DNA of 37,557 bases, taken from assembly GCA_045627965.1 (NCBI GenBank), contig JAZQOP010000083.1, positions 1 through 37,557 of the forward strand, read 5' to 3'. A program made the translations under genes and the position numbers. The stretch comes from Kiritimatiellia bacterium (GTDB taxonomy: Bacteria > Verrucomicrobiota > Kiritimatiellia > CAIQIC01 > Lenti-01). Of this stretch, positions 1 to 32,495 are shown piece after piece. Numbering within the stretch: position 1 is the stretch's first letter; each line of letters begins with the position of its first letter. The notes beneath the pieces were generated by a model. That model did no database searches, was not told the origin of the DNA, and worked only from the letters and a program-made list of their open reading frames with translations.

Positions 1-112
1 GGCTTTTCCGTCCGACGCGGGCCGTATTCGGCAGGGATCGCGGTCCCGCGGTAGCCGAATGGGGGGCCTAAGGGATGGCCATTCGGCCCCTGGCGGGCGG
101 TTCGACCGACGG

Positions 113-138
113 CGGGCCGCTCGGAGAGCGGCCCCTAC
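113..138 (-). repeat. GTAG-type REP element
   Basis: Reverse complement reads GTAG-GGGCCGCTC-tcc-GAGCGGCCC-G: GTAG followed by a perfect 9-bp hairpin. Its + strand partner is only partly recognisable at 17-24. Confidence 0.8.
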
Positions 139-160
139 CAAAAGGGGCCTCACATGGGGG

Positions 161-207
161 GCAAAATCCGCAAAAATCCCAATGTTCAACCGAAAAATCA
201 CGGAATG
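161..207 (+). repeat. 47-bp A-rich repeat, copy 1 of 4 (others at 416-462, 1851-1897, 2189-2235)
   Basis: Approximate consensus GCAAAATnnGCAAAAAnnnnAATGTTynACCGAAAAATCACGGrATG, seen four times in direct orientation. Confidence 0.85.
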
Positions 208-254
208 TGCGGGGCGAATTTTGGGCGAGATTTTTGCGGGTTGGTGGCATTTCG

Positions 255-394
255 GTAGGGCCCGGTCTCCGAGCGGGCCGTATTCGGCAGGGATCGCGGT
301 CCCGCGGTGGCCGAATGGGGTGCCTAAGGGATGGCCATTCGGCCCCTGGCGGGCGGTTCGACCGACGGCGGGCCGCTCGGAGAGCGGCCCCTAC
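255..394. repeat. REP doublet (REPIN-like, 140 bp): inverted GTAG-REPs at 255-280 (+) and 369-394 (-)
   Basis: gtagggcccggtctccgagcgggccg at 255-280 and cgggccgctcggagagcggcccctac at 369-394 are imperfect inverted copies, each GTAG plus a hairpin. Confidence 0.8.
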
Positions 395-2083: not shown

Positions 2084-2736
2084 CAAAGGGGGCTATGATT
2101 GGACAAAATGGGGGCAATGGGCGCCCCCCGACGGGACGCACAGGACCCACGGGACGAACGGGATGGGGCGGCGGGGGGCCGATGGGGGGCAAAATGTGCA
2201 AAAAGCCCAATGTTCCACCGAAAAATCACGGGATGCGGGGGGGGGCGGGTTTGGGGGCGGGCGCGGGGTGGGTGGATGGCGGGTTTGTTGTGCCATTTTG
2301 TTGCATGTTCGATTTTGCTCAAAATGGACGAAAAACGGAAAGGGAACAAAAACGGGAATTTCCGGAAGGCGCGGCTAAAACGTTTTACCCTATTTATGCA
2401 AGAAAGTGTAGTTTTTCTTGTGCGCGAGGCCGCCGCATGTTAGGATTCCTCCAGTTCGCAGGGTGTACCTGCGGGCCGACAGAATTCGAGATTTGCCCGT
2501 TTTTGGCTGAAAATTGGCGATTTTATGAGAAAAACCTGGCATCGGTTCCGCTGCGGATCATGCCTCTCTTGCGTTGGACGCAGGGAGGACGCGAGAGGTC
2601 TGCACCCGGTTCGTGGCGGTTTTTCAAGCGAATTCAACGCCGCTGTCGCCCTTTGGGCGGAGGTGGTTTTGGCAACGGATGAAACCCTGGGCAGCACCCC
2701 GATGTTTGACGCATCGATGTTGCCGATTGCGAAACG

Positions 2737-5004
2737 ATGACGACCTACGGAAAAGCGACGCTTTCGACTGGAATCGGGTCCGGAAGGGCCTGGTTGCCGG
2801 TGCGTGCACTTCCGTGGGTTGTGCTGGTGGCGTTGTGCCTGATCCTCGGGGCGACGTATTTCGCCTATGCCCCTGTGCGGGACGCGGATTTCGTCAATTG
2901 GGACGACGGGGTCTACGTGATGGGGAACTACCGTGTCCAGCAGTGGGGCTGGGACACGATGGTCGACTATTTCCGGATGCAGCCAAAACTGGGGCCGATG
3001 CCGAATGCGCAGTACACGCCGCTGGTGGAAGTGAGCTACGCCATCGAGCATCGTCTGGCGGGGCTGGACCCGAAAGTTTATCACACGACGAACCTGCTGT
3101 TGCATTTGCTGACGACGCTGCTGCTGGCGTGGGCGGTGCGGGAGCTGTGGGGCCGTCGGGGTCGGAGCGCCGGTGAATCGTGGGGCGTTGGCCTGCTGGC
3201 GGCGCTTCTGTTCGGGTTGCATCCGTTGCACGTGGAGAGCGTGGCGTGGGTGACGGAGCGGAAGGACATGCTGAGCGGCTTGTTCTTCGTGCTGTCGCTG
3301 GGGTTGTATCTGCACGGGAAGGGGCGGAGAGCCTGGTGGGGCGCAGGCAGCGTCGTCGCGATGTTCCTGGGTGTGCTGTCGAAGCAGGTGGCGGTGATGG
3401 TGCCGGCATGCCTGGTGCTGTGCGACTGGCTGGCGGAGGGGCGGTTCACGGTTCGGCAGGTCGTGTCGAAATGGGCTTGGTGGCTGGTGTCGGCCTTCGG
3501 GGTCTGGGCGGCGCTCTATTCGCATACGTTGGGCGGGGCATTCACGGGCGGGACGGCGTTCCATCCGGTGGAGAACGTGCTGGTGGCAGGCCGCGGCGTG
3601 GTGCAGTATGTGTGGACCTACGTCTGGCCGTTCGCGCTGAGCACGTTGTACACGCTGCCGGACTGGGCGGAAATCCCGAAACTGGCGTTTGCCGCGTGTG
3701 CGCTGGGCACGGTGCTGGCGACGGTCGGCGCGTGGGCGTTGCGCAAGCGGGTGCCGGAGGTGTTCTTCGGGTGGATGTTCTTCCTGCTGGCGCTGGCGCC
3801 GAGCTCCCGCCTGGTGCCGGTGGGCATCCGCTTCCTGTCGGCGGACCGCTTCTTCTACGTGCCGGGCATCGGCCTGCTGGTGCTGACGGCGTGGGGGCTC
3901 GCGAAGCTGGCGGCGTGCGGCGGCGGATGGGCGTGGGGCACGGCGGCGCTGGCGGCGGTGTTGTGCCTGGCGTGGGGATGGGGAACGCGCGCCCGCACGG
4001 GCGTGTGGCAGAACGACGCCGCGCTGTGGGAAAGCATGGCGGCGACGGCGGAAGATTCGTCGATCCCCCTGAACGGGCTGGGGTGGCAGGAGTTGTTGGT
4101 CAAGCATTCGCCGAGCAATGCGGTGAAGAAGGCGTTCGCGGCGCTGGAGAAGGATTCGCTGGATGCGGGGGCGCTGAGCTTGCTGTCGGAAGTGGCCTAC
4201 CAGAACGGGGAGCTGAACAAGTTCCTGAAATTCGCGAGCTATGCGGAAGAGGCTTCCGGGGGCGATGTGATGCAGAGCCGTCCGCGCGTGTCGTGGGCGC
4301 TGACGTTGCAGGGGAAGGAAGAAGAGGCTGCGGCACTGCTGGAGAGCGTGCTGGAGAAGCAGCCGTTGGCGGCCCCGTACTGGGCGCAGCTGGGCTGGAC
4401 GAAATGGCACGGCGGGGACGAGGCCGGGGCGGCGGCGGCGCTTTCACGCGCGAAAGAACTGGACGCGGGCGCGCGCGAACTGTATCGGGTGCTTTGGGGC
4501 GAAAAGGGCGAGAAGGGGGCGGGGTATGGCGAGTGGGAAAAGCTGGCGGCGGCGAGCTCGGGCTGGTTTGTGTTGCAGTATACGGCGGGACAGGATGCGC
4601 ATTTGACGCTGGACATGGCGCTTGGTGCACAGGCGGAGGAGGAGCGGCTGACGGCGGCCATGGAGCGCCTGCTGCCACCTTGGGACGCCGTGATGAACGA
4701 CGAAGACGCTCCGTTGGACGCCCGCATCTGGGCGGCGGACGTGCACCGGAAGACGGCGGTGACGGAGTACAATTTGGCCTGCCTGCTGTGCAAGGCGGGG
4801 AATTTGACGGGGGCGGCGTCGCGCTTGGAGCGGGCGATGGATTTAGACGAAACCTTGCGCGCCAATGCGCAGGAGGACGAAGATTTACAGGCCATCCGAG
4901 GCCGTTTCTTCCCCGAAGAGGCGGATTTGGAGGCCGAGGAAAAAGAGGAAGGGGACGCGGACGCCGCGTTGGCCTTCCCGCAACCATGCGAGGTGGCGAT
5001 ATGA
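2737..5004 (+). CDS. TMTC-like GT-C protein O-glycosyltransferase (putative mannosyltransferase) with C-terminal TPR repeats, 755 aa
   Basis: Multi-TM N-terminal half with FVNWDD acidic motif after TM1, YHTTNLLLH, LFGLHPLHVESVAWVTERKD, LSKQ, ADRFFYVP and RTGVWQND, followed by TPR-like helices (YNLACLLCKAGNLTGAASRLERAMDLD). Start codon uncertain. Confidence 0.85.
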   Translation: MTTYGKATLSTGIGSGRAWLPVRALPWVVLVALCLILGATYFAYAPVRDADFVNWDDGVYVMGNYRVQQWGWDTMVDYFRMQPKLGPMPNAQYTPLVEVSYAIEHRLAGLDPKVYHTTNLLLHLLTTLLLAWAVRELWGRRGRSAGESWGVGLLAALLFGLHPLHVESVAWVTERKDMLSGLFFVLSLGLYLHGKGRRAWWGAGSVVAMFLGVLSKQVAVMVPACLVLCDWLAEGRFTVRQVVSKWAWWLVSAFGVWAALYSHTLGGAFTGGTAFHPVENVLVAGRGVVQYVWTYVWPFALSTLYTLPDWAEIPKLAFAACALGTVLATVGAWALRKRVPEVFFGWMFFLLALAPSSRLVPVGIRFLSADRFFYVPGIGLLVLTAWGLAKLAACGGGWAWGTAALAAVLCLAWGWGTRARTGVWQNDAALWESMAATAEDSSIPLNGLGWQELLVKHSPSNAVKKAFAALEKDSLDAGALSLLSEVAYQNGELNKFLKFASYAEEASGGDVMQSRPRVSWALTLQGKEEEAAALLESVLEKQPLAAPYWAQLGWTKWHGGDEAGAAAALSRAKELDAGARELYRVLWGEKGEKGAGYGEWEKLAAASSGWFVLQYTAGQDAHLTLDMALGAQAEEERLTAAMERLLPPWDAVMNDEDAPLDARIWAADVHRKTAVTEYNLACLLCKAGNLTGAASRLERAMDLDETLRANAQEDEDLQAIRGRFFPEEADLEAEEKEEGDADAALAFPQPCEVAI

Positions 5005-5102
5005 TGACGAAACGAAGCAATACCGGATGGACGGCGTTTTTCGGGCGGTGGATTGCGCTCGGAGCGCTGGTGATGGGATTTGGAGCGTCGGTGGCGCAAG
5101 GC
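5001..5102 (+). other. Sec signal peptide of the giant protein
   Basis: Basic N-region (KR), hydrophobic IALGALVMGFG, and a putative AQG|A cleavage site. Confidence 0.75.
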
Positions 5103-8100
5103 GCCATTAAGGAAAACTTCGAAGTTTTGGGAACTGGTTTCGGGACCACCAGTTGGCGGACCTATACCGGGACGGCGACGCTGACCGTCAAGACCGGCCG
5201 CTATTATTCGACTTCCGGTGCCGCGGTGGGAACGAAGGCGGCGAACTTCTCGTCCAAGGGCGGTCTTGTGGCCTACAACGCGAACGGCATCGGGAGCGTG
5301 AGCTTCTACTACAAGAATTGGTCGACCAAGAGCACCGTCACCTTGCGGATGGTGGCGACGTTGGGCGGGAAGAGCACTTATAAGACGTTTTCGTTCACTA
5401 CGACGGGATGGGTGTCCACGAGCTGGACCCCCGGGCTGACGGGGACGGGAGCGGCATCGTTTTCCGTGACGAACTCGGCGAACGCCTACCGTTTCTTCAT
5501 CGACGAGTTCACGTTGACGGATGGAGCGGTGGCCCCCGTGGAAGGCGACGTCTGGATTTGCCCGGAGACGACGGGGAACCTGGGGACGTACGAGGTGGGG
5601 TCGACATTGGGGGATATGTGGCTGAACTGCCAGATCGGGCAGCAGAGCTGGAACATGTCGCAGGTGGGGATTGGGCTTGCGGGGACGGAGAACACGTGGC
5701 AGAGCTGGTATACGCTGTCGTGGTATGCGGACGGGGACGGGAGCAACAAGAAGGTCCATGCGAACCTGAACGGGTACCAGTTCACGTCGGTGGGACAGTA
5801 TAACATTATTTACCAGGCGAACAACGGCGGGACGACGACGAGCTGGTCCGGGGACGGGTGGACGAATGCAGGGGCGTATCCTCCGGCGAGCATCGGGGCG
5901 ACGTATTTCACGGTGACGGCGGTGGGGGTGCCGACGGGGTGCTCGGTGTCGGGGGCGACGACGACGTCGCTGACGGTGAACTGGACGAAGAACTCGTATA
6001 ATGACAAGGTGATGGTCGTGCGCTGCGCGAGCGGTGCGACGGCGCCGACGCCGGTGAACGGGACGTCGTATGCGGCGGGGGCGTCGATCGGTTCGGGGAC
6101 GGTCGTCTATCCGGCGGGGACGGGGACGAGCAAGACGGACACGGGGCTGTCGGGGGCGACGACGTATGACTACTATGTCTTTTCGTGCAACAACAACTAC
6201 TATTCGTCGGGCGTGAAGGTGTCGGGGACGACGCTGACGCCCGAGACGCCCCCGTCGTGGAGCGCGTCGACGGACACGGCGACGGGGACGGCGGGCGTGG
6301 CGATGACCTACACGCCGAGCGGAGCGAGCGGGTCGCCGACTCCGACGGTGACGTTGCAGTCGAGCAGCGCGGCCGCTTCGACGTATTCGTTCACGGGCGG
6401 GAAGCTGACGTTTACGCCGGCGGCATCGGGGAGCTATACGTTCACGTTCCGGGCGACGAACTCGGCGGGCACGGCGGACAAGACGTTGACGGTGACGGTA
6501 AAGCCGGCGGCGCCGGCGGTGGCGGTCAACAACACGACGGGGAGCACCATCGGCGGGACGATTTCGGGGCTGGAGCCGGGGGCGACGGTGATGCTGCGGA
6601 TGTATGATTCGCTGTCGGCGGCGAATTCCGACACGACGGGGACGAGCGGGACGGATGTTTCGGCAAACGTGACGGTTTCGGGGACGTCGGGGACGTGGAG
6701 CGTGTCGGGCGTGGACGGCTGCACGGCGCGGTCGTTCAAGGCGTGGCAGACGGTCAACGGCCAGAAGAGCGCCGGGTCGGCCGGGGTGACGGGCACGACG
6801 GTGACGCCGGACGCCCCGAGCGTGATCCCGAGCGCGACGCCGACGTCGGTCACCCTCTCCTGGGCGGCCGTCGCCGGGGCGACCCACTACATCGTCAACG
6901 TCTGCCCGGCGAGCGCTTCGTCGAGCGCCAAGGCGGTGGCGCGGGGGACGACGACGGATACGCTGACGCGGGACACTACGGGCATCACACAGACAAGTTA
7001 TACTGCTTGGAGCGGGAAGACCGTTTCCTCGGAGGCGGTCTATGCCGGCACATCGGCGGGCGGCAACACTTCCATTCAGCTCCGTACCAGTTCCAACACG
7101 GGTGTGTACACGACAAGCAGCGGCGGAAAAGCTCTCAAGGTGACCGTTGTGTGGAATACTTCCACTTCGAGCAATCGTGGCCTTCAGGTCTATGGGAGGA
7201 ACACGGCATATACTTCCATTGGCGATGTCTGGGGATCGGCCCCAGGAACGTTGCTGGGCACGATTTCCTACACGAGTTCCAGCTCGTATGACACGGAAGT
7301 GACGATTTCCGGCGATTACGAATATATCGCCTTGAAGCCGACGGGGGGCGCGCTCTATCTGACATCTATCACGATCGACTGGGAGACGGGCGGGGCGAGC
7401 TGCCTGGCGCGCGACGAGGAAGTGGCGGGGACGAGCTGGACGGCGAGCAGCGGGGTGGTGCAGGGGACGACGTATGACTGGAGCGTGGTGGCGGTGGGCG
7501 GCACGGCGCAGTGCGTGAGCGACGCGGCGACGGGCACGGTGACGGCGGGGGCGGAGGACCAGGCGCCGACGTTCGCGGAAGCGAGCGTGAGCTTGACGGG
7601 GACGACGGGGACGGCGGTGACGCATACGCAGACGGCGACGGGGTATCCGGCGGCGATGACGTACAGCATCACGAGCGGGAGCGGGGCGACGGTGAGCGCG
7701 GCGGGCGAGTTCAGCTTTACGCCGAGCGCGGCGGGGACGTATGCGTTCACGGTGCAGGCGGCGAACGGTGTCTTGCCGAATGCCACCTATGCGATCAATG
7801 TGACGGTGAAGCCGGCGACGCCTGTCGTGGCGGTGACGACGGAAGGGGCGGGGAGCCTGTCGGGTACGGTGACGGGGACGGAATCCGGCGCGACGGTCAA
7901 CCTGCGGCGCTATGACACGCAGGAGGCGGCGGATGCGGACACGACGGGGACGGGCGGCTCGGCGGTGACGGTTTCGGGCGGCGCGTTCGACGACACGGGC
8001 CTGGCGGGTTGCACGACCTATTATTATAAGGCATGGCAGACGGCGGGTGGCCAGACGAGCGCCGGCAGCGCCGTCGCCAGCGGCACGGCCGGGCTGGCGG

Positions 8101-11100
8101 GCCCGGCGGTGAGCGTGAGCGCCCAGACGGAATCGAGCTTCACGATGCAGTGGGGCGCGGTCGCCGGCGCATCCAGCTATCTTGTGCAGGTCGCGACGGA
8201 TGACGAGTTTTCGTCGGGGAGCGCTACGGTGCTGGAAGAGGACTTCAGCGGGTTCGGCACGGCCGGCGGGAGCGACGGAACGACGGATATTTCGGCGTCC
8301 CTCGACGGGAAGACCTCGACGCGCGGGTGGTGGGGGAGCAAAATCTACACGGGCGGCGGACGTGCCAAACTGGGAAGCAGCTCCGCCATCGGCTACATTT
8401 GCACGCCTCCGATGAGCCTGCCGAACGGCGGCACGGCGACCTTCTCGCTGCAGAAGTACGGCACGGACACGGGGTCCGTGAAGGTGGACGTGACGACGGA
8501 TGACGTGGACAACAGTCCGACGTGGACGACGTTGACGACCATCGCTCCGCAGTCGACGGAGACGGAATATACGGTGACGTTGCCGGCGGGGGCGACGGTG
8601 ACGCTGTCGTTCGAGACGACGACCAAGCGCGCGTATGTGTGCTCGCTGACGGTGGAGGGCGGTTCCGGCAGCGGAAGCCTCATCTATTCGGCGGCGGGGA
8701 CGAGCCCGACGACGGTGTCGGACCTGGAGCCGGGGACGTACTACTACCGTGTGCAGTCGGTCGGCGGGAGCTGCGAGACGTGGAGCACGATCGGGAACGT
8801 GACGCTGGAGGCGACGTCGCCGGCGCTGGTGGTGAAGGACGGGGCGACGACGCTGTCGACGGGGGCGACGGTGGCGCTGGGGAACGCGGACCGCGAAGGT
8901 GCGGCGGTGACGAAGACGATCACGCTGGACAACACGGCGGGGACGGCGGCGCTGACGGTTTCGGGGATTGCGGCGACGGGGGACGGGTTCTCGGTGGCGA
9001 ACGTTCCGGTGACGGTGGCGGCGGGGGCGACGGCGACGTTCACGGTCCAGTTTGCGGCCGGGACGATGAACGAAGGGGACCGGTCGGGGACGGTGACGAT
9101 TTCGAGCAACGACGGGACGACGCCGGAGTTCGTCCTGAACGTGACGGCGCACGTGGTGCCGGGCGCGCCGACGGCGGGGACGCCGGCCGTGTCGGGGCTG
9201 TCGGCGAGCGGGGCGACGGTGACGCTGGGGACGATCCACATGCACGGCGGCGCGGCGAGCGCGGCGACGTTCGAGTACGGGACGACGGATAGCTACGGGA
9301 CGACGGTGACGCTGGGGCATGGCGCGCTGACGGCGTCGACGACGAGCGGCACGTTGAGCCAGGCGCTGACGGGGCTGTCGGCCTACACGACCTACTACTA
9401 CCGCTTTACGGTGGAGAACGCGGGCGGGTCCTGCGTGAAGACGGGCTCGTTCCAGACGCAGGGGATCGCCCCGGTGTGGACCTCGTCGACGCTGTCGGCG
9501 CGGACGTTGAAGTATTCGTCGTCGCTGGGAATCGGGTTGACGACGTATCTGAGCGAGCTGGGGACGCCGGCGGCGACGTTTACGATGGCCTTGGTGGGGG
9601 GGGATGCGCCGGCGGGGACGTATAGCGTGACGACAGACGGGACGTTTACGATCAGGCCGGCTCCGGCGGACGCGGGGAAGACGTTCACGTTCGCGTTCAC
9701 GGCGTCGAACGCGGCGGGGAGCGCGACGGCGACGCTGCAGGTGACGGTGACGAAGGGGACGATCGGCGTGGTCGGGAGCGGTGCGTTCGAGGCGACGGCC
9801 GGGACGACGGTGACGCGCGAGTTCACGATCAACAACTCGGGCGCGACGACGCTGATCGTGAGCAACATCGTGGTGGCGGGGACGGGCTTCTCGCTGGCCG
9901 ATGCCTGGTCGAAGACGACGATCCAGGCGGGCGGCTCGGCGACGTTCACGGTGGCGTTTGCGCCGGCGACCGAGGGAAGCTACACGGGGACGGTGACGCT
10001 GAAGAGCGACGACCCGGCGAGCTGGGACTATGTGCTGAACCTGACCGGGACGGGCACGAGCGCGAGCTGCGTCGAAGGCAGCACGAACGAGTTCAACCAC
10101 CTGCCGGCATCCTACGCGACCGTGGTCAACGACGGCGGGACCTGGGAGGAAGGGGGCTACGCGCTGGGCATGTGGGCGCACAACGGGAGCGTCAACCAGG
10201 TGTCGGCGTTCCGCAAGTTCACGACGACGGGACTGAACAGCGGGACGGCGCGTCCGCTGGCGGTCGGCGACGAGTTCACGATCTGGACGAAGGCGGACGG
10301 GGCGCCGTATTCGGACGGGTATGCGGGGATCAGCTTCAACGACAGCCTGTCGTTCAGCGCGCATAGCGGCGTCTACGATGTGCGGCGCGGCGCGATCCAG
10401 CTGTGCGGCGACGGGCACTACAAGGTGTTCGACGCGGACCACCCGGACGGCGAGGACACGGGCAAGACGGCGGGGCAGTGGCGGAAGATCCGCTTCAAGG
10501 TGACGAGCTCGAGCACGTTCACGGCGGCCATCACGGACGACGGCGGCGCGAACGAATACGTCTACAGCGACCGGCCGATGATGAACGGGCCGACGGCGAG
10601 TTCGCGGATCCAAAGCTACGCGGTCTACCTGAAGAACGACGGCGGGCACAACAACTACTGGCAGGACGGGAAGGTCACGGATACGGGCTATGTGACGTTC
10701 GGCTCGGACGACAACTCGATCCCGCGGACGATCTCCGGCGTGATCAGCGACGGCGTGCCGGCGAACTGCGCGAACGGGTCGCGGACGAACCGGGTCTACA
10801 AGAAGGGGACGGGCATCATCGCGCTGACGGGCGTGAACACGTTCAGCGGCGGCGTGGAGATCCAGGGCGGCATCCTGCGGGTGGGCGCGGACAGCGCGCT
10901 GGGCGCGGTCCCGGCGAGCGTGTGGCCGGCGGTGGTCATCCTGACGAACGCGGCGCTGGAGGCGACCTCCACGTTCGAGATGAGCGCGCTGCGCGGCGTG
11001 CAGGTGGCGGGTCCCGGCGCGGGCCTGACGGTCGACGCGTCCCAGACCTTGACGATCGCGGGCCCGTTGAGCGGGAGCGCGACGTGGAACAAGTTCGGCG

Positions 11101-14100
11101 ACGGCACGCTGCGCCTGACGGGCGTGAACACGTTCACGGGCGGCGGCTATGTGAGCAACGGGACGGTGACGGCGGCCAGCGCGCTCGCCCTGGGCGGCTC
11201 GACGAGCGGGCAGATCACGGTGAACGGCGGCGCGACGCTGCGCATCGAGGAGAACACCTCGGCGCAGAAGCTGGTGGCGCAGGCGGGCTCGACGTTCGCG
11301 GTCGTGGCCGGCAAGGCCCTGACGGTGGCGGCGGCGAGCGACATTTCGTCGAGCACGGTGCAGTTCGACCTGTCCGGCGATGCGACGTTCGACGGGGCGG
11401 CGGCGGCCGAGTGGGCGATCATCAAGGGCGCGACGACGACGACGAACGGCGCGACCCTCTCGCTGCAGAACCTGCCGGCGGGCGCGAACGCGAGCTGCTT
11501 CTCGTTCGCGAAGAGCGGCACGACGCTGAAGGTGACCTATGCGCCGCCGGCGGCCAGCGGCAACGACGTCTACTGGCGCGCGGAGGCCGATGACGGGCAC
11601 TTCGTCCTGTCGAGCGGGCACGGGAGCGTCCAGCCTTGGTGGTACAAGATGGCCAACGGCGCGGGCTACGCGAACGCGAACATGACGGACAACGGGCCGA
11701 ACAACCTGTTCTTCAACAACGGGAACCAGGTGGCCATGACGAACGACGTGGCGAGCACGGTCGCGACGATCGCCTTCGTGAGCGGGAACTCTTCGCGGAC
11801 GATCTACGGGACGGCGCCGCTGACGGTGCTGGACGCCATCACGAACAAGGCGGGCGCGAACCACTTTGCGGTGCCGCTGGCGACGGATGCGGACGGGCTG
11901 CTGGTGACGAACACGTCGTCCGCGAGCATCTACTTCGATGGCGGGTTCACGGGCGGCGACATCACGAAGAAGGGCGCGGGGACGCTCTACATCGCCTCGG
12001 AGATGGGCGTGGGCGTGGACTTTGACGTGCAGGCCGGCGCGCTGCAGTTCAACAGCGGCGCGGCGGTTCCGGGGAACGTGCAGGTGGCCTCGGGTGCGAG
12101 CGTGAAGGCGAACGCGACGGCGATGACCTACGCCGGGACGATCAGCGGGGCCGGCTCGCTGTTGAAGCAGGGGACCGGCACGTTCGTCGTGACGGGCGAG
12201 AACACCTTCGGCGGCGGGACGACGGTCAGCGGCGGGACGCTGCAGGTCGGCAACGGCGGGACGTCCGGGACGCTGCCGGGCGACGTGGCGCTGTCGGCGG
12301 GCACGGCGACGCTGGCGTTCGACCGCAGCGACGCCTGCACCTTCGCCGGCGCGGTGTCCGGCACGGGCAAGCTGGTCCAGAGCGGGACGGGGACGCTGAC
12401 GCTGAGCGGCACGAGCACGCTGACGGGCGCGACGACGGTCTCGAACGGGACGCTGGTCGTGAGCGGTTCGATCGCTTCGAGCGCGACGACGGTGGCTTCG
12501 GGCGCGACGCTGTCCGGCACGGGCACGGTCGGCGCCCTGGCGGTGAACGGCACGGTGGCCCCCGGCGCGAGCGCGGCGGCGGGCACGGCCGGCACGCTGA
12601 ACGTCTCCGGCGCGGTGGCGCTGAACGCGGGCGGCGCGCTGGCGGTCGACCTGGCGACGACGACGTCGGCGGACAAGATCGCGGCGACGGGCGCCATTGC
12701 GGCGAATGCGAGCGGCATCTTCACGGTGGCGGTGCGCGGCGCGTGCACGGGCTTCGACAAGACGCAAGCCTACAGCTGGACGATCGTCGACGGCAACGGG
12801 ACCCTGACGGGCTTCGATGCCTCGCGGATGACGGTCGACGCGTCCGCCTTCGGGCCGATGGTGGCCGACGCGGATGGCGCCTTCGCGCTGACGGCGGAGA
12901 ACGGCGACATCGTGCTGTCCTGGAACCCGCGCCCGGCGGCCCCGACGCTGTCGGTCGGCGCGCCGGCGGCGGATTCGATCCCCGTGACGGTCGGCAACGC
13001 CCCGACGGGCGGCTCGCTGGTCGTGGTGGTCAAGCCGGCGGCCGATGCATGGACGATTGCGGCGAACGAGTATCCGACCGGTTCCCTGCCGAGCGTCGGC
13101 GACAGCTTCGTCGGCGGCACGGTGAAGTATGTCGGCGGCAACGCGACGGCCCAGTCGCTGGCCGGCCTGCTGAGCTGCTCGGCCTACGACATCCGCGTCT
13201 ACAGCTACCTGGACGGCACCTGGTCGGCGGCGACGGCCTCCGATGAGTCCGTCGAAACGACCGCGCCGGCGGCCCCGACGTCGCTTGCGCACGGCACGCT
13301 GACGGCGACGAGCGCCGACCTGAGCTGGGCGGCCGTCCCGGGTGCGGCCAGCTACGTCCTCGATGTCGCCGTCGGCGAGTTCGGGACGGGCGGCAGCGGC
13401 ACGCCGGGCGAGAGTGTGACCATCCTGACGAACGCCGCGACGAGCTACTCGTCGGTCCCGACCGGCTGGACCTACAACCACCTCAGCGGTTCGTCCTACC
13501 TGATCATCGGCTATTCGGATGGCTATGTCCAGACGCCGGAGTTCAGCGCGGCGACCTACACGGGCCTGACCCTCAAGTTCTTCATGCGCACGTATGGCGG
13601 CCCGTCCGAGGCGGGGAAGACGCTGACCATCCAGGCCTCGCTCGACCACGGTTCGACCTGGTCCGACGTGGGGTCGGCCAGCGCGAGCTCGACGACGCTG
13701 ACGGAGAAGACGGTCGACCTGAGCTCGTTGGACCGCCAGGCGAGCGTCATCCTGCGCCTGGTCGACAAGGGCGCGGCCAGCAACAAGGGCGTCGGCGTGA
13801 AATCTATCTCCCTGACCGGCGAGAACACGCCGGTCCCGACGACCTACCTGGTGGCGAACGGGATCACCTACAGCAACTACGACGTCGGGAACGTGACGAG
13901 CTATGCGCTGACGGGCCTGGACGAGACGAACACCTACACCTGGCGCCTGCGCACGCAGGGGGCAGGGGATTGCCAGAGCGAGAACAGCGTCGAGGACACC
14001 TTCACGACGCCGCAGGACGCGAGCATGGGAACGGTGGTCGTGGCCGATTTCGCGACGGCGGGCCAGGTCGCGGCGCAGCTGGCGACGGCGGGCTCGACGA

Positions 14101-17100
14101 AGGTCGTCGTGCAGCGCATGCAGGTGACGGTCACGGACGCGGCGGTCGAGCTGACGGGCGCGGCCTTCGACCTGGGCGGCACGGCGGTCGCGGGCGACCT
14201 TGCCGGCTATAAGCTGTGGGTGGGGACGAGCGAGGACATCGCCTCGGCGACGCAGGTCGGCGCGGCGAGCGCGACGGGCGTCTGGACGGGCCTGTCGAAG
14301 TCGCTGGCGCTGGGGACGCACTACGTCTTCCTGACGGCGGACATCCAGGCGGCGGCGGTCGGCGGGCACACGATCGAGCCGGCGGCGTTCGCGGCGAGCA
14401 GCCTGTCGTTCACGAAGGCGCGCAAGAGCGGCTCGGCGACGGCGGCGGGCGCGACGACGATCGGCAAGGCGCCGGTGGTCAGCGTCGTGGACGGCGTGGT
14501 CCGCTACAACTGGGCGGCGGGGACGGGGCACACGATCGACTTGACGTCCGGGTCGGCCTATCCGGTCGACGACCTGGAATGGTCGATGGTCCACGGGACG
14601 ATCGGCGGGTCGCCGTACATCACGCCGGACGGCACGAACGCGGTCTTCCACTGGGCGCCGACGGTGAACGAGGTCGGCCAGACGGTCGGCTTCAGCTTCA
14701 CGGCGGAAAACTCGGTGGGCGTCTCGGCGCCGTGCATCGTGCAGGTGACGGTGGGCATGGGGTCGCTGTCGGCCTTCTCGGCGACGCCGGTGGAAGGCAA
14801 TGCGGGCGCGATGGACCTGGCGTGGACGCCGTTCGGGGCGGACACGAGCGTCCGGATCCGCTACACGGAATACGCGGGCGAGGAGCTGACCTACGCGAGC
14901 GGCGGGGCGATCGCCTACGAAGGGCCGGCCAGCGCGCTGACCTATCGCATGACCAGCGGCATCACCGCGTGCAAGACCTACTACTTCAAGGCCTGGGAAG
15001 TCACTGGCAGCACCTACTCGCCGGAGGCCCTGGAAGACACGGCGACGGCGCCCGCCCCGGCGGCGCCGGAGAATCTCTCGGTCGCCAATCTCGACTATAA
15101 TACGTTCCAGGCGAAGTGGAACGCGGTCTCGGGCGCGGCGAGCTACCTGCTGAACCTCTACGAAGGGCAGGCGGGCGGCACCTTGGCCATCCAGGACTTC
15201 GAGACGCCGGCCGGCACGCCGACGCTGGCCTACGAGAACACGGGCGCCACGATCGGTGCGCAGAGCTACAGCTATCCGTCCGGCGGCACGACCGGCGTGG
15301 GCGGGAGCGCCGGGGCCTACGTGGTCAACGGCACGGCCGAAATCGACTTTGGGCCGTTCGACCTGACGGGCATCGAAGGCGCCCGGTTCGAGGTCGAGGT
15401 GGCCTCGTTGAGCTCGTCGAGCGGCAACGGCGCCGACACGGGGGACACGGTGACCATCTATGTGGAGCCTGGCGACGGGACCCTCTATCCGCAGGTGTGC
15501 ATCGCCGGCGCCGGCAATTCGCAGTGGAAGTACGGCTCCGGGGCCGACGTCGCGGTGGCCTATGCGCCCAACGACAGCGTGGGCAAGACGACCCATGGCA
15601 GCCTGGGCAAGCTGGTGGTCAGCAACCTTCCGGCGGTGGCGGGCGTGACGATCCAGGTCGAAATGGTGAACAATGCGAGCGCCGAGATCTGGGCGATCGA
15701 CAACGCGGCGATCGTCGCGGACGAGACGCGCGTGCCGGTGTCCGGGCAGCAGAACATCTCGACGACGAACCTGAACTACACCTTCACGGCCCTGACGGAG
15801 CAGACGAGCTACTCCTACACGGTGCAGGCGGTGGGCGCGACGGCGGAGTGCACGAGCCCGGCGTCGGCGCTGCAGGTGACGACGCCGGAGCGGTGCGCCT
15901 CGCCGGCGAACGTGCAGGCGACGGACGGGACGTTCTGGGACAAGATCCAGGTGACGTGGGCCTCCCGGAGCGACCGCGGCGCGACCGGCTACAAGATCTA
16001 CCGCGCGACGACCGAGGACCCGGAGGACGCGGTCCTGATCGGGACGGTGAGCGGCGGGTCGACGACCTCCTACGACGACGTCCATGACGCCTCGACCAAC
16101 CCGCTGGCGCTGGGCCGGACCTACTACTACTGGGTGACGTCCCTCGCCGGCGACAGCGAAAGCCAGTTCCTGAACAAGGACGGCGGCTATCGCGCCGGCC
16201 TGCTGATGCGGACGGGCTTCGAAGGCGATGCGTCCGTCGAGACGTGGAACCTGGCCCCCGAGACGGCGTTCGACGACGACGCGCTCGACGCGCCGCGCAC
16301 GATGCTTTCGACCGTCACGAACGGCATCGAGGGCACCTACGCCCTGCGCCTGGCCCCGAACGAGCCGGCGACGCTCGACACGGTGGGCATCCCCTCCACG
16401 GCGCAGAACCTGGCCGTCGCCTTCACGGCGGCCTACGGCGACCTCAAGGGCCAGACGGGCGGCCCGAAGAACAACGACAACTTGACGATGAGCGTCAGCT
16501 ACGACGGCGGCGCGACCTGGCAGACGCCGCAGGTCGTCATCGCCGGGACGGGCACCGCCGCCGGGCGCGGCACCTTCGCCGAGCACAGCTTCGAGCTGCC
16601 GCTGGATGCGGCGGCCGCGGCGGCGGCCGGCCAGCTCTCCGTCCGCTTCATGTATGCGGCCGACGGGACGGGCGGCGGCTGCTACTGGATCGACGACCTG
16701 CGCCTTCTGGGCGACGCCTCGCTGCCGACGGTCTCCTTCGTCGGCGCGGCCTATGACGACGTCGTCGAGGGCGACTCGGCCGTCCAGGTGACGGTCCCGG
16801 TGAAGATTTCCTCCGCGGCGGCCGCGACGGTCGGCATCGCCCTGAAGGGGACGGCGACCGAAGGCACGGACTACACGCTGTCGGCGACGACCGTGGAGTT
16901 CGCGGCCGGCGGCGCGACCAGCCAGGACGTCACGGTGACGATCGCCGCCGACGACCTGCCCGAAGGCACGGAAAGCATCCGCCTGATGCTGACGGGCGCG
17001 ACCGGCGCCTTGGTCGGCCCGAACAGCCTGCATACGATCTTCGTCCGCGACCCCGACGCCTTCGAGGTCGGCACGGCGCGCCTCGGCGGCAACGCCGAAG

Positions 17101-20100
17101 CGGACCGCATCTTCGCGACGATCCGCCCCGACGTCCTCGCCCTGGAGAATGCGACGAACGTGACCCTGCCCAGCGGCTACACGCTGTCGTCGAAGGCCGG
17201 CACCGGCGAACATTCGCTGGTGGTGGCTTCGCGCTACCCGATCAAGGGGCAGGGGACGATGTCGCTGACCGGCGGCACGGCCCACTGGGTGCACCTCGAC
17301 CTGCCCGACGCGCTGTCGGCGGAAGACCTGGTGCTCTTCCACGTCAAGATGACGAACACGGTGGCCGGACGCGCCTCGCAGGCGACGGCGCTGGCGTCCG
17401 CGATCGCCACGGTCGTCACGGAGAACGGGTTCGAGGACGAGATGCAGGCCATCGTCGGCCCGCTGGCCATCGAGCGCGGCGACGCCGAGGCGGCGCTGGC
17501 GACCCTCGTCGGCGCCGGGTTCTACGACACAAGCGTGCCGCGGGACAGCGCCGCCCTGGAGGGCAGCTCGCTGGATGGCACGTCGACCATCGGCTACATC
17601 CTGGCCAACCAGGCCCTCGAACGGCGCACGGCCCCGTTCGTCTACGCCGACCGCACCTTCTCCGGCGGCCAGATCTACGACACGCGCGACTGGAACGGCC
17701 ATGATCTGCCCGCCCTGGTGCAGGACATCACGGCGTGGAGCGACAGCAAGAGCAGCCGCCCCGTCCTCAAGCTCTTCACCCTCGGCAAGGTCGTCCAGGC
17801 CCCGGCCCTCGAGGTCGTGACGCACCAGTCCGGCGGCGTCGATTCCGCGACGGAGATCGACTGGACGGTGACGCCGAACGTCGACGGCGACGCGTGGGTC
17901 CTGGTGGTGAACCAGACCGGCGTCTTCCTGTCCCCGGCGGCCGGATCGGCGATTCCGGCGGCGGGCGAGACCTTTGCGGGCGGCACGGTCGTCGCGAGCG
18001 GCGCCGCGGGCGGCACGGCGGCGGTTTCGGATACGCTCGACGAGCTGACGGCCTGCTCGACCTACTACTTCGCGGCGTTCTCGAAGGATGCCGACGGGCT
18101 CTTCTCTCGGGCGTCCGAGGCGTCGGCCATCACGGCCGAGCCGATGGCTCCCGAGGGGCTCGTCGCCTCCGACGTCGAGGCGGCCTCCTTCACGGCCACC
18201 TGGACGGAGCCCGCCGGCAATGGCGCGGCCTTCTACGAACTGCGCGTCTCCACCGAGAACCCCGGCACCCTCGACCTGCAGGACAAGCTCCCGCTCGCGA
18301 GCGGCTACGGCATCGAGCCCCTGACCTCCGGCAGCGCCTCGACGCGCGCCAGCGGCTGGACGACGGGCGGCTCGACCGCCTTCGAGGCGACCGGTTTCAA
18401 GATGGGCAGCGGCAAGGCCATCGGCTCGATCACGACGCCCGAAATGGACCTGCTGGCCAACAACGGCACCGCGACCCTGACGTTCGACGCCAAGGCCTAC
18501 AACACCGACAGCGGCTCGGCCTTGGAGATCGCCGTCATCACGGGCGCCGGCACGACGACGGCTTACACGACGCCGACCCTGGGCACCGACGACTACGCTA
18601 CCTACCAGGTCGAGCTGGCCGGCTGCACGGCTGAGACGCGCATCCGCTTCGAGACGCTGGCCTCCGGCAAGCGCGCCTACCTGGCGAACGTCCGCGTCCA
18701 GCAGGGGAGCGCGGCGGTCGAATACGTCCCGGGCTACGACCACCTCGACACGGGCTCGATCGCCGGCGGCGGCGAGCACAGCGTGGCGGTGACCGGCCTG
18801 GTCGAGTCGACGAAGTACTACTGGCAGGTCCGCGCCCGCGGCGCCAGCTGCGACAGCGAATGGGTGACCTACTGCTACACGAACGCCACGCCCGAAGTGG
18901 TCGACTATGTCGAGACGCTCGGCGCGCCGATCATCAGCGTCAACCCGATCGCCTACGCGTTCGGCATGGTCGCGAAGGACAGCGCCGTCACCGGCACGGT
19001 CTGGGTCGCGAACATCGGCCATGACGACCTGTCCGTCTCCTCCATCACCTTCGCCGGCACCGGCAGCGGGAACTTCAGCGCGACGCCGACGAGCATCGCC
19101 ACGATCGCCCGGCCGTCCGGCGAGACGGTCTACTCCAACGCCATCCAGGTGGTCTTCGCCCCGACGGTCGGCGGCACGTTCAACGTCAACATGGTCATCG
19201 CCAGCAGCGACCCGGCCACGCCGACGGTCAACGTCGCCCTGACGGGCTCCTGCAACGACCCCGAGACGGCGCTGCCGACGATCCTGGGCTACGGCGTGAT
19301 CGACGAGTTGGGCACGACGAACCGCGTGACCGACCACTCGATGGCGCTGGAAAGCGACGCCCCGACGGTCCGGATCTACGCCTACCACGTCAAGGGCGTG
19401 GAATCGGCGTCGGCGCGCTGGCGCCTGCTGGGCCTGGACGGCAACGTCCTGGCGGTGGCGGACAACGAGACGTTCACCTCGTGCGAGCCGGCGACCTACA
19501 GCGGCCGCGCGGCGCAGTGCTTCACGGCGACGATCCCTGCGCTGGGCGCCGGGCAGGCGGCGCTGGGCCAGTACAAGCTCGAAGCGACCTTCACCAGCTC
19601 CAACGGCTACACGACCTCCTGGTATGGCTACTTCGACCCGAACGGCCAGACCTGGATCATGGACGACTTCAACCGCGGCGACGCCCAGGGCGCCCAGATG
19701 GGCGGCGGCTGGAACCAGTGCTACAGCGGCGCCGTCGCCAACGAGGCGGCGGTCGCCAACGAACGCCTCGAGTTCTTCGGCCCGAACACCGGCAACGGCG
19801 GCGGCAACGGCTACATCGGCGTCTACCAGGACGTCTCGCACCTGCCCTACAATGCGCAGCTCAGCGGCAACGACTCGACGCTGACCTGGGGCTTCGACTT
19901 CCTGCCCGGCCATTCGCTGGCGGACTTCGCCTCCGGCCACTACGCGGCCGCCTTCGTCCTGGGCTCCACCGCGGGCAACTACGCGACCGCCACGGAAGGC
20001 CAGCGGGGCTTCGCGGTCATCGCGACCAACGGCACCATCCGCCTGGCGAGCTTCAGCGGCAGCCTGACGGCCAACGCCAACATCAAGGCCCTCGGCGACG

Positions 20101-23100
20101 GCTTCGCCTATGACAGGACGTCGCCCGTCGCCATCCGCGTCGACTATGTGCCGTCGCGCTCCGAGAACGTCCTGAACGACGACAACGAGACCTACTCGAC
20201 GGCCACGACCGACGCCTACCTCGACCTCTACATCCGCACGCTCGCCGACGCCGCGGCCATGGCCGACGACAACCCGACCGAGGGCTTCACCACGGCCGAC
20301 CGCGTCACCCGCGTCGACCTGACCGCCATCGCGGCCACCAACGCCGCCCTGGTCCCGGACAACCTCGAACTGAAGTATGCCGGCGCGTTCTGGTCGCACG
20401 CCAAGGTCACGACCCCCGATGCCGGGACGTGCGCCCTCTTCGACAACTTCTACTTCCCGCGCGCCTCCGGCCAGCCGGTCGTGATGAGCTTCGACGTGGT
20501 CGACGAGGACACCGAGCCGCCGGTGCACAGCGACTTCAACGTCCGCGGCGCCATCCCCTACGACGACATGGCCGGCGGGCTGTCGGTCACCGGCCTGGTG
20601 ACGGACCTCTCCGGCGTCTATGCCGCGAGCAACACCTGGCGCCTGCTGAGCAACGGCATCGAGATCGCCAACGGCGTCCTGGCGGCCTCGCCGGCCGAGG
20701 ACGGCGCCGCCCAGGTCGTCGGCCTGTCCTGCACGATCCCGCAGAGCACCTTCGTCAAGGGCAACTGCGACGGCTTCGTCTTCGAGGTCGCCAGCACGGA
20801 CTACGACCGCGACCACGCGGACGACTGCCTGTCGTCGACGGCCTCCTATCCGTTCTCCGTCACCGAGCAGAACCTGCACACGCCGACCTACTTCGCCGTC
20901 GAGCCCGACGGCGAGGAAATGGTCGTCGCCCGCTGGAACAACTCCGGCGAGTGGGTCGTGATTGTCCGCTCCGACGATCCGATCGACGAGACCGTCTGCC
21001 CCGAGCAGGGCGTCGCGGTCACGAACGGGCAGTGGCTGGCGGGCATCGGCCAGGTCGCCTACATCGGCAACAACCACGCCCAGCAGTACGGCGACGGCGT
21101 GGCCGAGCTCATCGTCGCGCCCGGCTCGACGAACTACTTCCGCATCTTCGGCACGGCGAACAGCTACTTCACCGCGAGCCTGGCCCCGTCGACGAACGAC
21201 CCGTGCGCGACGCCGGCCTACGAGCCGAACGAAGGCGTCGACTCGTTCCTCTACGCCACGTCGATCCCCGACTACGGCGACACGAACCAGGCCGCTTACG
21301 CCACCGCGTTCGACGACAGCAAGTACTACGTGCCCGGCGGCACCACGCGCCCGGCGACCGGCAGCGGCTGGGGCGAGGACAACTCCTGGACCGGCGACAT
21401 CTCCAAGTGGCACATCCACGACGGCAACCTGCCCGTCGGCCCGACGACCTGCTACCCCGACCCCGTCGGCAACAAGCTCTACTGGCAGGATACCTCCAGC
21501 TACACGGATGAAGGCGCGACCCTGGTCCGCACCTTCGAGCGTCCGATGAGCGGCGACGTCTTCGTGGCCTTCCTGATGAACTACCAGTACGGCGGCCCGC
21601 ACAAGTATGCGAGCATCGCCCTGCTCGACGCCAACGGCGACGAGATCGTCAGCTTCGGCAAGCAGGCCGGCTGGGACCAGTATGCCAGCGACGACTGGCA
21701 GAACGCCGCCGCCATCTACGTGCCGGCCCGCTACGACGGCTACGAGCACTACATGGCCAACCGCGCCGGCGAAAGCCACAGCACCTTCGTCCTGACCCCG
21801 GGCGAGTTCCAGGACTACGCGCTCGTCGGCCAGGTCTCCGCGGCGGACCACATGTTCCGCCTGTGGGCCTACTCCTGCCGCGAGGACGCCGGCCACGCGA
21901 TAGACCAGATCTACACCAACGCGCTCCAGAACACGGTGCACCTGGTGGCGTCCTGGTCCAACGCGAACATCGGCACGGCATCCGTCGCCGCCATCCGCGT
22001 CCAGGCCGGCTCCGGCGCCGGGGCGGGCGGCGACAGCAAGTGTGAGCTGGGCCACGTCTACTTCGACGAAATCCGCTTCGGCTCCACCTGGGACGAGACC
22101 CTGCTGTTCAACAAGCCCGAGGTCTTCGTCTACGAGATCGGCGAGCAGTACGGCACCGACCCCGAAGGCCGTCCGCTCTACTGGATCAGCGACGGCGAGC
22201 TGGCGCACGACGACATCCCGTTCGACATCAGCTTCAACCTCTACCACCGCACCGGCGTCAACTCCGCCGAGTTCACGATCCTCGACCCGACGAACGGCGC
22301 CGTCCTGCTGTGGACGAACCGCCTGGCGGATACGACCACCGTCGGCCTCGTCAGCACCAAGATCGGACAGTACTCGACCTGGTCGCAGCACGTCCAGGGC
22401 GTCGCGATGAAGACCAACGACATCATCATCGGCACGAACAACGTCTACACGCTCCAGGTCCACATGGTGGCCCAGGGCGGCAAGGAGGACACGGTCACCA
22501 GCGCGGCCGAAGGCGGCAAGGGCGCGAACGACCTCTTCTTCGGCGAGTTCGGCGAAGGCAACAGCTACGACAAGTACGTCGAGCTCTACAATGGCACGGG
22601 CCAGGCGATCGACCTCAGCCAGTACATGATCTGCTGCGTCATGAACCCGAAGGGCGACGACAAGGAGGACTACTATTCCGCCATGCGGAACTGCACGGTC
22701 CGCTACTCCTACATGCTCGATGCGGACGGCAACTCGATCATCCTGCCGCACCACGAGACGGTCGTCGTCCTCAACGGCGGCCCGAACGGCAAGGCGAACG
22801 CGGCGATGGCCCAGGCCCTGGAGGCCCAGGGGCGCAACTACGTCTACGCAACGAACGACGTGCTGAACGTCTCCGGCGACGACCCCGTCCTGCTGTTCCA
22901 CCTGCCCGATACGAACAACTGGATCGACGCCTGCGGCATCGCCGAGGGCATCACCGACCAGCGCTACATCATGACCCGCTATGCCGAGTCGGAAGTGCCT
23001 CGCCCGGCGCCCCTGGTGGTCGACACGGACGAATGGTTCTTCCGCCAGTGGGACAAGACGAGCACCCCGCCGACCGAAAGCGAGAGCTACACGAACTTCA

Positions 23101-28845: not shown

Positions 28846-28886
28846 GGGCGTGGAGGGGGGCCGTGGGGAGACAAAATGGCGCGGGG

Positions 28887-28915
28887 TTGCTGTTTGGCAT
28901 GGAATCTGCTATTCC
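28887..28915 (+). promoter_or_regulatory. Putative sigma70 extended -10 promoter of batA
   Basis: TTGCTG (28887-28892), 17-bp spacer, TATTCC (28910-28915) preceded by TGn. ATG follows at 28925 with no SD. Confidence 0.45.
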
Positions 28916-28924
28916 CCATGTGCC

Positions 28925-32421: not shown

Positions 32422-32495
32422 CCGGGCGGACGGGGGCGAGGGCGGAACACGGCCCGGAAGCGGGCGGAAAAAAGGACGAGAAAGGACGGTTGGCG

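Follow-up and report, generated by a model that had tools for sequence, protein, structure and literature searches.

Predicted split fibronectin type III modules and strain-to-strain replacement of their jelly-roll inserts in a giant protein of gut Verrucomicrobiota

The DNA analyzed here (the window: the whole stretch of 37,557 nucleotides (nt), contig JAZQOP010000083.1 of GenBank assembly GCA_045627965.1, C83 in our set) comes from a member of the Kiritimatiellia, phylum Verrucomicrobiota, represented by a metagenome-assembled genome (MAG) of 2.33 Mb in 368 contigs that is 89% complete, and carries one giant gene encoding five copies of a module built on fibronectin type III (FN3) domains. 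All five modules lie in a single open frame, 3180..27902 (+), for which the listed start is GTG 3180; the likely start is ATG 5001, residue M608 in the numbering of this frame, whose ATGA overlaps the stop codon of an upstream TPR gene (2737-5004). The 607 codons ahead of it, GTG 3180-5000 (+), are most likely a high-GC read-through rather than a gene. The alignment of the orthologue P0002 (7,630 amino acids (aa)) begins at residue 2 of the window protein, counting from M608, and this, together with the signal-like sequence at the Met of 5001, gives a protein of about 7,634 residues.

The first-pass annotation of the window had described five FN3 domains, each recognizable by a Trp, each interrupted by another domain and each accompanied by a pair of Cys residues. 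All 15 of the Trp and Cys positions are right and in one frame: the Trp codons of modules 1 to 5 fall within WAAVAGATHY, WGAVAGASSY, WAAVPGAASY, WNAVSGAASY and WTEPAGNGAAFY, respectively, five of five upstream codons and five of five downstream codons encode Cys (Table 1), and the spacings of 792, 762, 795, 879 and 795 nt between them hold. The five module regions align over their entire length, and a profile derived from modules 2, 3 and 5 recovers both module 1 (E 1.4e-12, profile positions 4-367 of 373) and module 4 (E 4.6e-14, positions 54-371), the other modules being only 20-28% identical to module 2. These alignments argue that the five modules are homologous cassettes; with the same profile, no sixth copy was found in the open reading frame (ORF) 3180..27902. 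A sequence signature of the modules is W-x-x-V-x-G-A-x-x-Y, followed after ~160 residues by T-Y-Y-[YF]-R-V-x-A-x-G-x-x-C.

Modules 2 and 1 were modeled with AlphaFold2, using alignments of 42 and 47 modules, with mean predicted local distance difference test (pLDDT) values of 90.5 and 85.2 and predicted template modeling (pTM) scores of 0.64 and 0.63, respectively. The strand order is the same in both models, namely, an FN3-like sandwich, strands A-B-C, a beta-rich domain of ~160 residues, and then strands C'-E-F-G, such that the segments on the two sides of the beta-rich domain form one split FN3, not independent complete domains. Single solved FN3 chains align with the models over 79-96 residues, with a root-mean-square deviation (rmsd) of 1.6-2.8, across model ranges 94..336 and 99..359, that is, bridging the insert. 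As placed by VIA-align, these include, on module 2, 6x39_A (87 residues aligned, rmsd 2.1, model 95..334), 2ibg_A (89 residues, rmsd 2.6) and 6m76_A (80 residues, rmsd 1.6), and on module 1, 7y8h_B (90/93 residues, rmsd 2.2, model 99..352), again 6m76_A, and 6bt9_A. The tandem FN3 pair of tenascin, 1qr4_B, covers the preceding domain together with the split FN3 (167 residues, rmsd 4.1, in module 2; 169/175 residues, rmsd 4.9, in module 1). In a profile search of the PDB (profile A2), the FN3 match likewise came in two halves, with profile positions 99-141 corresponding to FN3 residues 2-44 and positions 295-347 to FN3 residues 46-109. Models, structure alignments and two-half profile matches agree on an FN3 split by a complete inserted domain, as originally proposed, and the models place the insertion point in the C-C' loop. 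None of the five split FN3s reached the Pfam threshold for fn3, for which the sole match is an uninterrupted copy at residues 4241-4328; this copy is followed, rather than interrupted, by a jelly-roll-like domain that matches the insert profile with an hhalign probability of 77.5%.

Table 1. Positions of the modules and of other features in the window (frame numbering for residues) and of socket domains in related loci
Feature	Position	Strand	Remarks
Module 1, preceding FN3-like domain	6501..6800	+	Cys 6720-6722 just ahead of strand F; block pLDDT 93-98 (model residues 1-100)
Module 1, split FN3, N-terminal half (modeled)	6801..6908	+	strands A, B, C; W 6861; Cys 6903-6905 ending strand C
Insert i1, CBM-like jelly roll (modeled)	6909..7400	+	core 6969-7374 = swapped cassette
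Module 1, split FN3, C-terminal half (modeled)	7401..7550	+	C', E, F, G; neck Cys 7401-7403; FG-loop Cys 7512-7514
Module 2, preceding FN3-like domain	7812..8096	+	Cys 8010-8012; block pLDDT 92-98 (model residues 1-95)
Module 2, split FN3, N-terminal half (modeled)	8097..8195	+	model residues A 100-105, B 110-114 (W 8151), C 122-128
Insert i2, jelly roll (modeled)	8196..8678	+	swapped in P0002
Module 2, split FN3, C-terminal half (modeled)	8679..8816	+	model residues C' 290-294, E 300-302, F 308-318, G 321-332; FG-loop Cys 8772-8774
Module 3	12936..14057	+	Cys 13176, W 13326, i3 ~13371-13838, Cys 13971; no further Cys
Module 4	14757..15935	+	Cys 14970, W 15117, i4 ~15162-15725, Cys 15849; extra Cys residues 4107, 4239
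Module 5	17817..18929	+	Cys 18054, W 18201, i5 ~18252-18722, Cys 18849; extra Cys residues 5149, 5232
Extra Cys of modules 4 and 5	15498 (4107), 15894 (4239), 18624 (5149), 18873 (5232)		
Intact FN3, then jelly-roll-like domain	15894..16739	+	FN3 residues 4241-4328; jelly-roll-like residues 4335-4520
Giant gene	5001..27902	+	7,634 codons; likely start ATG 5001 (MMTKRSN...)
Predicted Sec signal peptide	5001..5102	+	hydrophobic core, ...SVAQG/A; read by eye: MMTKRSNTGWTAFFGRWIALGALVMGFGASVAQG
N-terminal beta-rich domain, outside any FN3	5103..5543	+	ENFE... to ...IDEFTLTDG; replaced in other strains
LTD in FN3 socket (relatives)	L028:1706-2251, L028:4958-5452, L024:136-663, L037:4844-5392		above Pfam cut-offs
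CBM_4_9 in FN3 socket (relative)	L024:1654-2115		above Pfam cut-off
AAA_14/DUF4143 ATPase	605-1762		neighbor gene
PfkB kinase	27961-28845		neighbor gene
BatA/VWA protein	28622-29923		neighbor gene
GT1 glycosyltransferase	32231-35134		neighbor gene
Cytidylyltransferase	36711-37403		neighbor gene

The limits of the first two inserts in the models, 6909-7400 and 8196-8678, are near those given in the first-pass annotation (6945-7390 and 8220-8660), and its suggestion that the inserts are jelly-roll or lectin-like domains is borne out for these two by structure comparison with carbohydrate-binding module (CBM) and adhesin chains (Z 10.7 for i1 and 11-14 for i2). Insert i2 (model residues 139-284) matches subrepeat B of reelin (2e26_A; Z 14.2, rmsd 2.1, 122 residues aligned), the K1 cleaved adhesin domain of Kgp, the Lys-gingipain (4itc_A; Z 13.7, 125 residues aligned, 25% identity), and a CBM of pectate lyase (8x8h_A; Z 12.8), as well as CBM29, CBM22, CBM4, the ligand-binding domains of Eph and the MAM domain of neuropilin, with Z 12.5 for 1wcu_A and Z 11.2 for 5l73_B. 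Because i1 matches the same CBM, 8x8h_A (Z 10.7, rmsd 2.8, 127 residues aligned, model 148..296), both modeled inserts are jelly rolls of the CBM/adhesin type. At the sequence level, the relationship is clear between i2 and i5 (blastp 1.8e-8) and marginal between i2 and i3 (0.001-0.01); homology among all five inserts was rejected, given that i1 and i4 reached an hhalign probability of only 9% against the i2/i3/i5 profile, and the 99% obtained for i3 is circular because i3 is part of that profile. The claim that five different domains are inserted therefore stands insofar as there are at least three sequence families, but not in full, three of the five inserts being related and i1 and i2 sharing a fold.

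Database families contribute little to the identity of the inserts. No Pfam match to Cleaved_Adhesin (PF07675), MAM or CBM families was detected at E<=0.01 for the five inserts of the window; i3 shows a weak match to Reelin_subrepeat-B (E 0.0014, below the cut-off), and for i4, language-model leads to Cleaved_Adhesin are weak (0.88-0.89). Homologue searches yielded 7 proteins for the split FN3 of module 2 and only 2 distant ones for i4, in choice-of-anchor-D/T9SS-type (type IX secretion system) proteins, and the names, "choice-of-anchor D domain-containing protein" and "caspase family protein", are uninformative. Inserts i5 and i2 were further matched to NF052644, the AS87_RS02955 family of T9SS-dependent surface endonucleases, at positions 51-175 of 251 (E 9.1e-18, 64.5 bits) and 15-169 of 251 (E 1.1e-7, 31.5 bits), respectively; membership in this family was rejected because both scores are far below the cut-off of 260 and only the non-catalytic N-terminal part is shared.

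The same matches, which together span positions 15-175 of NF052644, raise the alternative that the inserts are not adhesive lectins but substrate-targeting modules, for DNA or polysaccharide, of an extracellular degradative or nucleic-acid-handling machine. This would fit with the LTD, a domain typical of extracellular nucleases such as ExeM (a weak match here), which fills the same position in relatives (see below) and occurs once in the C-terminal part of the giant protein. However, the shared part of NF052644 lacks the catalytic region, no catalytic domain was recognized by Pfam or NCBIfam anywhere in the 7,634 residues, and the best structural matches of the inserts are CBMs and adhesin domains, so we regard a targeting role as rather improbable and favor binding heads of an adhesin-like protein.

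The two Cys residues of each module fall at profile columns 76 and 348 in 5/5 modules; since the protein from residue 608 on contains only 56 Cys among 7,633 residues, this recurrence is not due to chance. Among the 63 non-redundant modules that cover both columns, 32 combine C76 with C348 (EF loop of the preceding domain and FG loop of the split FN3, respectively), whereas in 27 C76 is missing and C348 goes with a Cys at columns 99-106, in the linker or at the start of strand A. The remaining four have none of the three Cys; neither an unpaired C348 (0/63) nor both partners at once (0/63) was observed. Forty full modules from 14 proteins of a sequence library comprise 30 with C76 and C348, 7 with the linker Cys and C348, 2 with none and 1 unpaired, and among 10 library matches limited to the C-terminal part, 9 have no Cys and 1 has an unpaired one. 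On these counts, the Cys pair is evolutionarily coupled. In FN3 domains, the C-terminal pole is where the EF loop sits, whereas the FG loop and the N-terminus belong to the N-terminal pole; therefore, either partner Cys could lie opposite the FG loop, at the junction between the two domains or on its other side. We conclude with moderate confidence that the pair probably forms a disulfide that acts as a covalent staple at the hinge.

Additional Cys residues also tend to come in twos. The pair at the neck of i1 (residues 1242 and 1408) is present in the window protein, P0002 and P0011, and both members are missing from P0137, P0127 and P0060; Cys 1741 and 1821 of i2 (8400-8402 and 8640-8642), possibly an intradomain pair, have given way to E and D, respectively, in the P0002 allele. 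Modules 4 and 5 have one extra Cys in the insert and another at profile column 360, just past strand G; these two could form a second staple that ties the insert to the rod, or they could pair in some other way.

The chemistry of the pair is less secure than its coupling. DsbA (PF01323), DsbB (PF02600) and VKOR (PF07884) were found in 0/26 related genomes of the order (G000-G015 and G025-G034, of which 16 are at least 90% complete), where the control genomes matched and the search was confined to these three oxidase families; VKOR, DsbB and Thioredoxin_4 (PF13462) were not found in the source genome (89% complete) either. The sequencing runs with the locus come from 4 studies of animal gut metagenomes, and therefore, in this habitat and with 0/26 genomes positive, enzymatic disulfide formation is unsupported. 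The lack of DsbA, DsbB and VKOR matches is surprising given the strictly paired Cys in the exported giant proteins of this lineage. Accordingly, the inter-domain disulfide of the first-pass annotation holds up with respect to the joint presence and loss of the two Cys (59/63 modules with a pair, 4 with none) but receives no backing from the oxidase search, and the Cys might instead be coupled without a disulfide, by a shared metal ion, another cross-link or mere packing, in a strict anaerobe devoid of envelope disulfides. We consider this unlikely: the strict rule of one partner, with that partner movable, is typical of disulfides, a metal site is seldom built from just two thiols, an exported protein could be oxidized spontaneously or by an unrecognized oxidase, and the further Cys at 1242/1408 and 1741/1821 are gained and lost in pairs as well.

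The module is not restricted to the window. It is present in 34/41 related genomes, including 24/24 of the same family, often in many copies within a single giant ORF, the longest having 13,557 aa, and the source genome alone has 25 domain matches over 9 contigs. In a library of 1.84 billion proteins, 8,504 proteins were detected at E<=0.001, many of them matching only the generic FN3 part; this total overstates the frequency of full modules because the top matches are proteins with many FN3 repeats that cover only profile positions ~50-165. A search for related loci with the module alignment gave 2 loci, both from MAGs of uncultured Verrucomicrobia/Verrucomicrobiota.

We cut 73 inserts from split FN3s of the window and its relatives, among which 4 LTD domains and 1 CBM_4_9 were identified above the Pfam cut-offs (Table 1); about a dozen of the others gave sub-threshold Reelin-B matches and the rest matched nothing in Pfam. 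Domains of the i1 type were also found in the source genome, free-standing between other Ig-like domains on two contigs (C139:1843-2313, locus L042, and C250:1155-1622, locus L043), and inside a split FN3 without the Cys on a third (C37:139-918, locus L041). The free-standing copies indicate that the inserts are autonomous domains seated in a conserved FN3.

Comparison of near-identical strains reveals that the insert cores are replaced in natural samples. The window protein and P0002 are 96.35% identical over 7,644 columns, and the 15 of 152 50-column windows with identity below 98% all fall within residues 608-798, 1249-1445 and 1546-1892, that is, the N-terminal domain, which is 32-70% identical, and the stretches around i1 and i2; elsewhere, identity is >=98%. 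Within the latter two ranges, the cores of i1 and i2 are ~48-62% identical and their flanks 78-96%. The edges of the diverged i1 core (residues 1264-1395) are sharp, with full identity through ...TTDTLT and again from GGALYLTSI..., and with the FN3 halves identical or nearly so; i3, i4 and i5 are identical in P0002. In a more distant orthologue, P0011, the flanks are also kept and the core of i1 is changed.

Sequencing runs gave concordant evidence, in a survey of Logan contigs over positions 5001-9000 in which uncovered parts were not counted as absence. Contigs from runs X1 and X3, which belong to different studies, join position 6968 to 7375 through 394 other letters instead of 406, at depths of 8.85 and 6; the flanks of this joint are >=99% identical to the window over 1.4 and 1.6 kb, with only 3 other letters in the 1,425 nt preceding it in X1. 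Both contigs are unlike the window before 5544, yet they carry the i2 allele of the window. A contig from run X5, of a third study, has a loose end at 7375, where its letters encode ...LTSIS of the P0002 type. Taken together, the X1/X3, P0002 and window alleles imply at least three haplotypes, among which the N-terminal head and the first two inserts vary independently of one another. The earlier suggestion to look among orthologues for conserved FN3 flanks with swapped inserts is thus borne out, by the i1 and i2 cores of P0002 and by the X1 and X3 contigs.

Two further variants were noted in passing. The X5 contig differs from the window at 8323-8379, within i2, by 8 substitutions and a compensated 1-base deletion/insertion, a milder variant of this insert. 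The orthologous giant ORFs L027 and L028 of two genus-mates (G009:C16 and G005:C2), for the most part 75-95% identical but only 12-45% identical at residues ~750-1850, form a mosaic; as the diverged block spans two whole modules rather than inserts alone, they are no clean test of insert swapping.

Apparent swaps of this kind could result from assembly, if paralogous modules or co-existing distant strains were joined into chimeric contigs; the source genome does contain paralogues of the i1, i2 and i3 types with 32-54% identity, the runs were surveyed as Logan contigs, not raw reads, and the window itself comes from a fragmented MAG. Such an artifact is nevertheless very improbable. The identical 6968-7375 joint appears in two studies, its flanks match the window far beyond read length, the independently predicted P0002 has the same edges, and no paralogue in the source genome is closer to the alternative alleles than the locus of the window itself, which is the nearest tblastn match of the P0002 alleles (39-54%). 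With replacement of the cores in nature taken as real, recombination anchored in the conserved flanks would be the simplest mechanism.

Pfam and NCBIfam searches of the whole protein recognized only scattered parts, namely, one intact fn3, one LTD, Calx-beta, HYDIN/choice-of-anchor-D Ig domains and PATR/autotransporter repeats. Of the last, 4-6 beta-strand repeats lie in a beta-helix-like stretch that separates modules 2 and 3, at 10760-12900 (+) (residues ~2540-3250). The neighbors of the giant gene in the window are ordinary (Table 1), and no secretion or sorting genes were recognized among them. Opposite the giant gene runs an antisense ORF of 7,922 codons, 4239-28007 (-), most likely a by-product of the G+C content of 63-71% around this gene and of codon bias, and not a gene. 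The product would be a Sec-exported, fibre-like surface or extracellular protein of gut Verrucomicrobiota, most likely an adhesin or polymer-binding protein.

We propose, therefore, that a two-domain cassette recurs five times along a rod, each copy consisting of an FN3-like domain followed by an FN3 that would carry, in its C-C' loop, a jelly roll of 160-195 residues of the CBM/cleaved-adhesin/MAM/reelin-B type. With the C-C' loop placed at the FN3's C-terminal pole, the jelly roll would bud sideways from the rod axis. The EF-loop Cys and the FG-loop Cys would face each other over the domain junction, and a disulfide between them, if formed, could stiffen the hinge below the binding domain. 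The split FN3 would serve as a socket, which in relatives is filled by other jelly-roll families, LTD or CBM4/9, and between near-identical strains the cores of some inserts are replaced wholesale, most likely by homologous recombination in the conserved flanks, with a probable change in the binding of the fibre or in its recognition. We judge this reading as a whole, an adhesin-like giant fibre with sideways jelly rolls, stapled hinges and swappable inserts, to be probable, with considerable room for doubt. A bolder version, in which the FN3 halves and the two conserved end strands of the insert (first and last) jointly form the seat and the recombination anchors of a system for varying specificity or antigenicity position by position, locked by Cys-Cys pairs made without Dsb enzymes, is possible but clearly more doubtful.

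Several points, in addition to the oxidase results, weigh against the proposal. The pTM scores leave the geometry between domains less certain than the domains themselves, pLDDT for i1 is only 48-89 per block, and a shared jelly-roll fold demonstrates no function. An unpaired C348 occurs in 2/50 library modules; the two classes of partner Cys track the type of preceding domain, of which there are two, and the modules are related, so that independent switches may be few; and the two extra Cys each in modules 4 and 5 make other pairings possible there. As to the exchange of inserts, tblastn detected no donor or silent copy of the alternative cassettes in the source genome (89% complete), and recombination is read from mosaic identity; furthermore, Logan contigs can be chimeric, although two studies share the joint. 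The split topology, the fold class of i1 and i2, the coupling of the Cys and the replacement of the cores in natural samples are the firmest elements, whereas ligand binding, the disulfide, rigidity and recombination are inferred.

If correct, the proposal has several implications. The sequence signature locates candidate binding heads in unannotated giant proteins of uncultured gut Verrucomicrobiota, and the "split domain" rule of RTX adhesins would extend to FN3 scaffolds and to another phylum. The sharp-edged replacement of cores between strains that are 96-99% identical points to heads under diversifying pressure, from host glycans, phages or immunity, and the swapped alleles of i1 and i2 are concrete pairs for comparing binding. 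Should the socket reading hold, gut Verrucomicrobiota could re-tool specificity at individual positions of a giant fibre independently. The coupled, partner-switching Cys in genomes where DsbA, DsbB and VKOR were not found raise the question whether anaerobes form structural disulfides in the proteins that they export and, if so, by what route.

Elements of this architecture are familiar from other proteins. The jelly-roll fold of the inserts is that of the cleaved adhesin domains of Porphyromonas gingivalis Kgp/HagA, of CBM families 4, 22 and 29, and of MAM domains and reelin subrepeat B, but those domains usually stand in tandem, whereas the inserts of the window are nested within an FN3. 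Insulin-receptor chains are among the Foldseek matches, with 4zxb_E among the structure alignments of module 1, and the insert domain of FnIII-2 of this receptor, a eukaryotic, single-copy case, occupies the same C-C' loop, showing that an FN3 tolerates a long insertion there; unlike the inserts of the window, however, it is largely disordered and contains a processing site, and is not a folded binding domain. Segmental gene conversion or allelic cassette exchange in bacterial surface proteins is exemplified by pilE/pilS and MgpB/MgPar, in which an exposed segment is likewise replaced, with sharp edges, inside an otherwise identical gene; in contrast, silent donor copies were not found in the source genome of the window, and the exchange may occur between strains rather than being programmed within the cell.

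The closest counterparts are the split domains of RTX adhesins, for which Graham et al. (2024, Proteins 92:933) is reportedly a source. A narrow search of the open-access literature returned nothing on an FN3 with an inserted carbohydrate-binding module in Verrucomicrobia, and a search for "companion split domains" yielded nothing on FN3 or Verrucomicrobia in the text of the papers available to us. The architecture had been thought undescribed in the first-pass annotation, but projection of ligand-binding domains from "split domains" is already published for RTX adhesins such as Aeromonas hydrophila AhLap and Vibrio cholerae FrhA, among others (PMC12077191; see also PMC10865825). As portrayed there, these adhesins share with the window protein a rod domain of beta-sandwich type into which a complete ligand-binding domain, in many cases a CBM, is inserted so that it buds off the fibre axis; the chain then re-enters the sandwich and completes it. 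Both are giant multi-domain bacterial surface proteins. The differences are that the host domain of RTX adhesins is a BIg-type extender and not an FN3 split at C-C', that their ligand-binding region is distal and not spread over five sockets along the chain, and that they have many bound Ca2+ where the window protein has a coupled Cys pair at the hinge. The window protein, in addition, has an N-terminal signal-peptide-like sequence in place of recognized RTX repeats or features of the type I secretion system (across the whole protein, RTX/HemolysinCabind families were matched neither in Pfam at E<=0.01 nor in NCBIfam at E<=0.1), lacks a long run of near-identical BIg extender repeats, and comes from the Verrucomicrobiota, with natural exchange of insert cores between strains. 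What is new relative to the RTX split domains is the combination of a partner-switching Cys pair with the natural exchange of insert cores.

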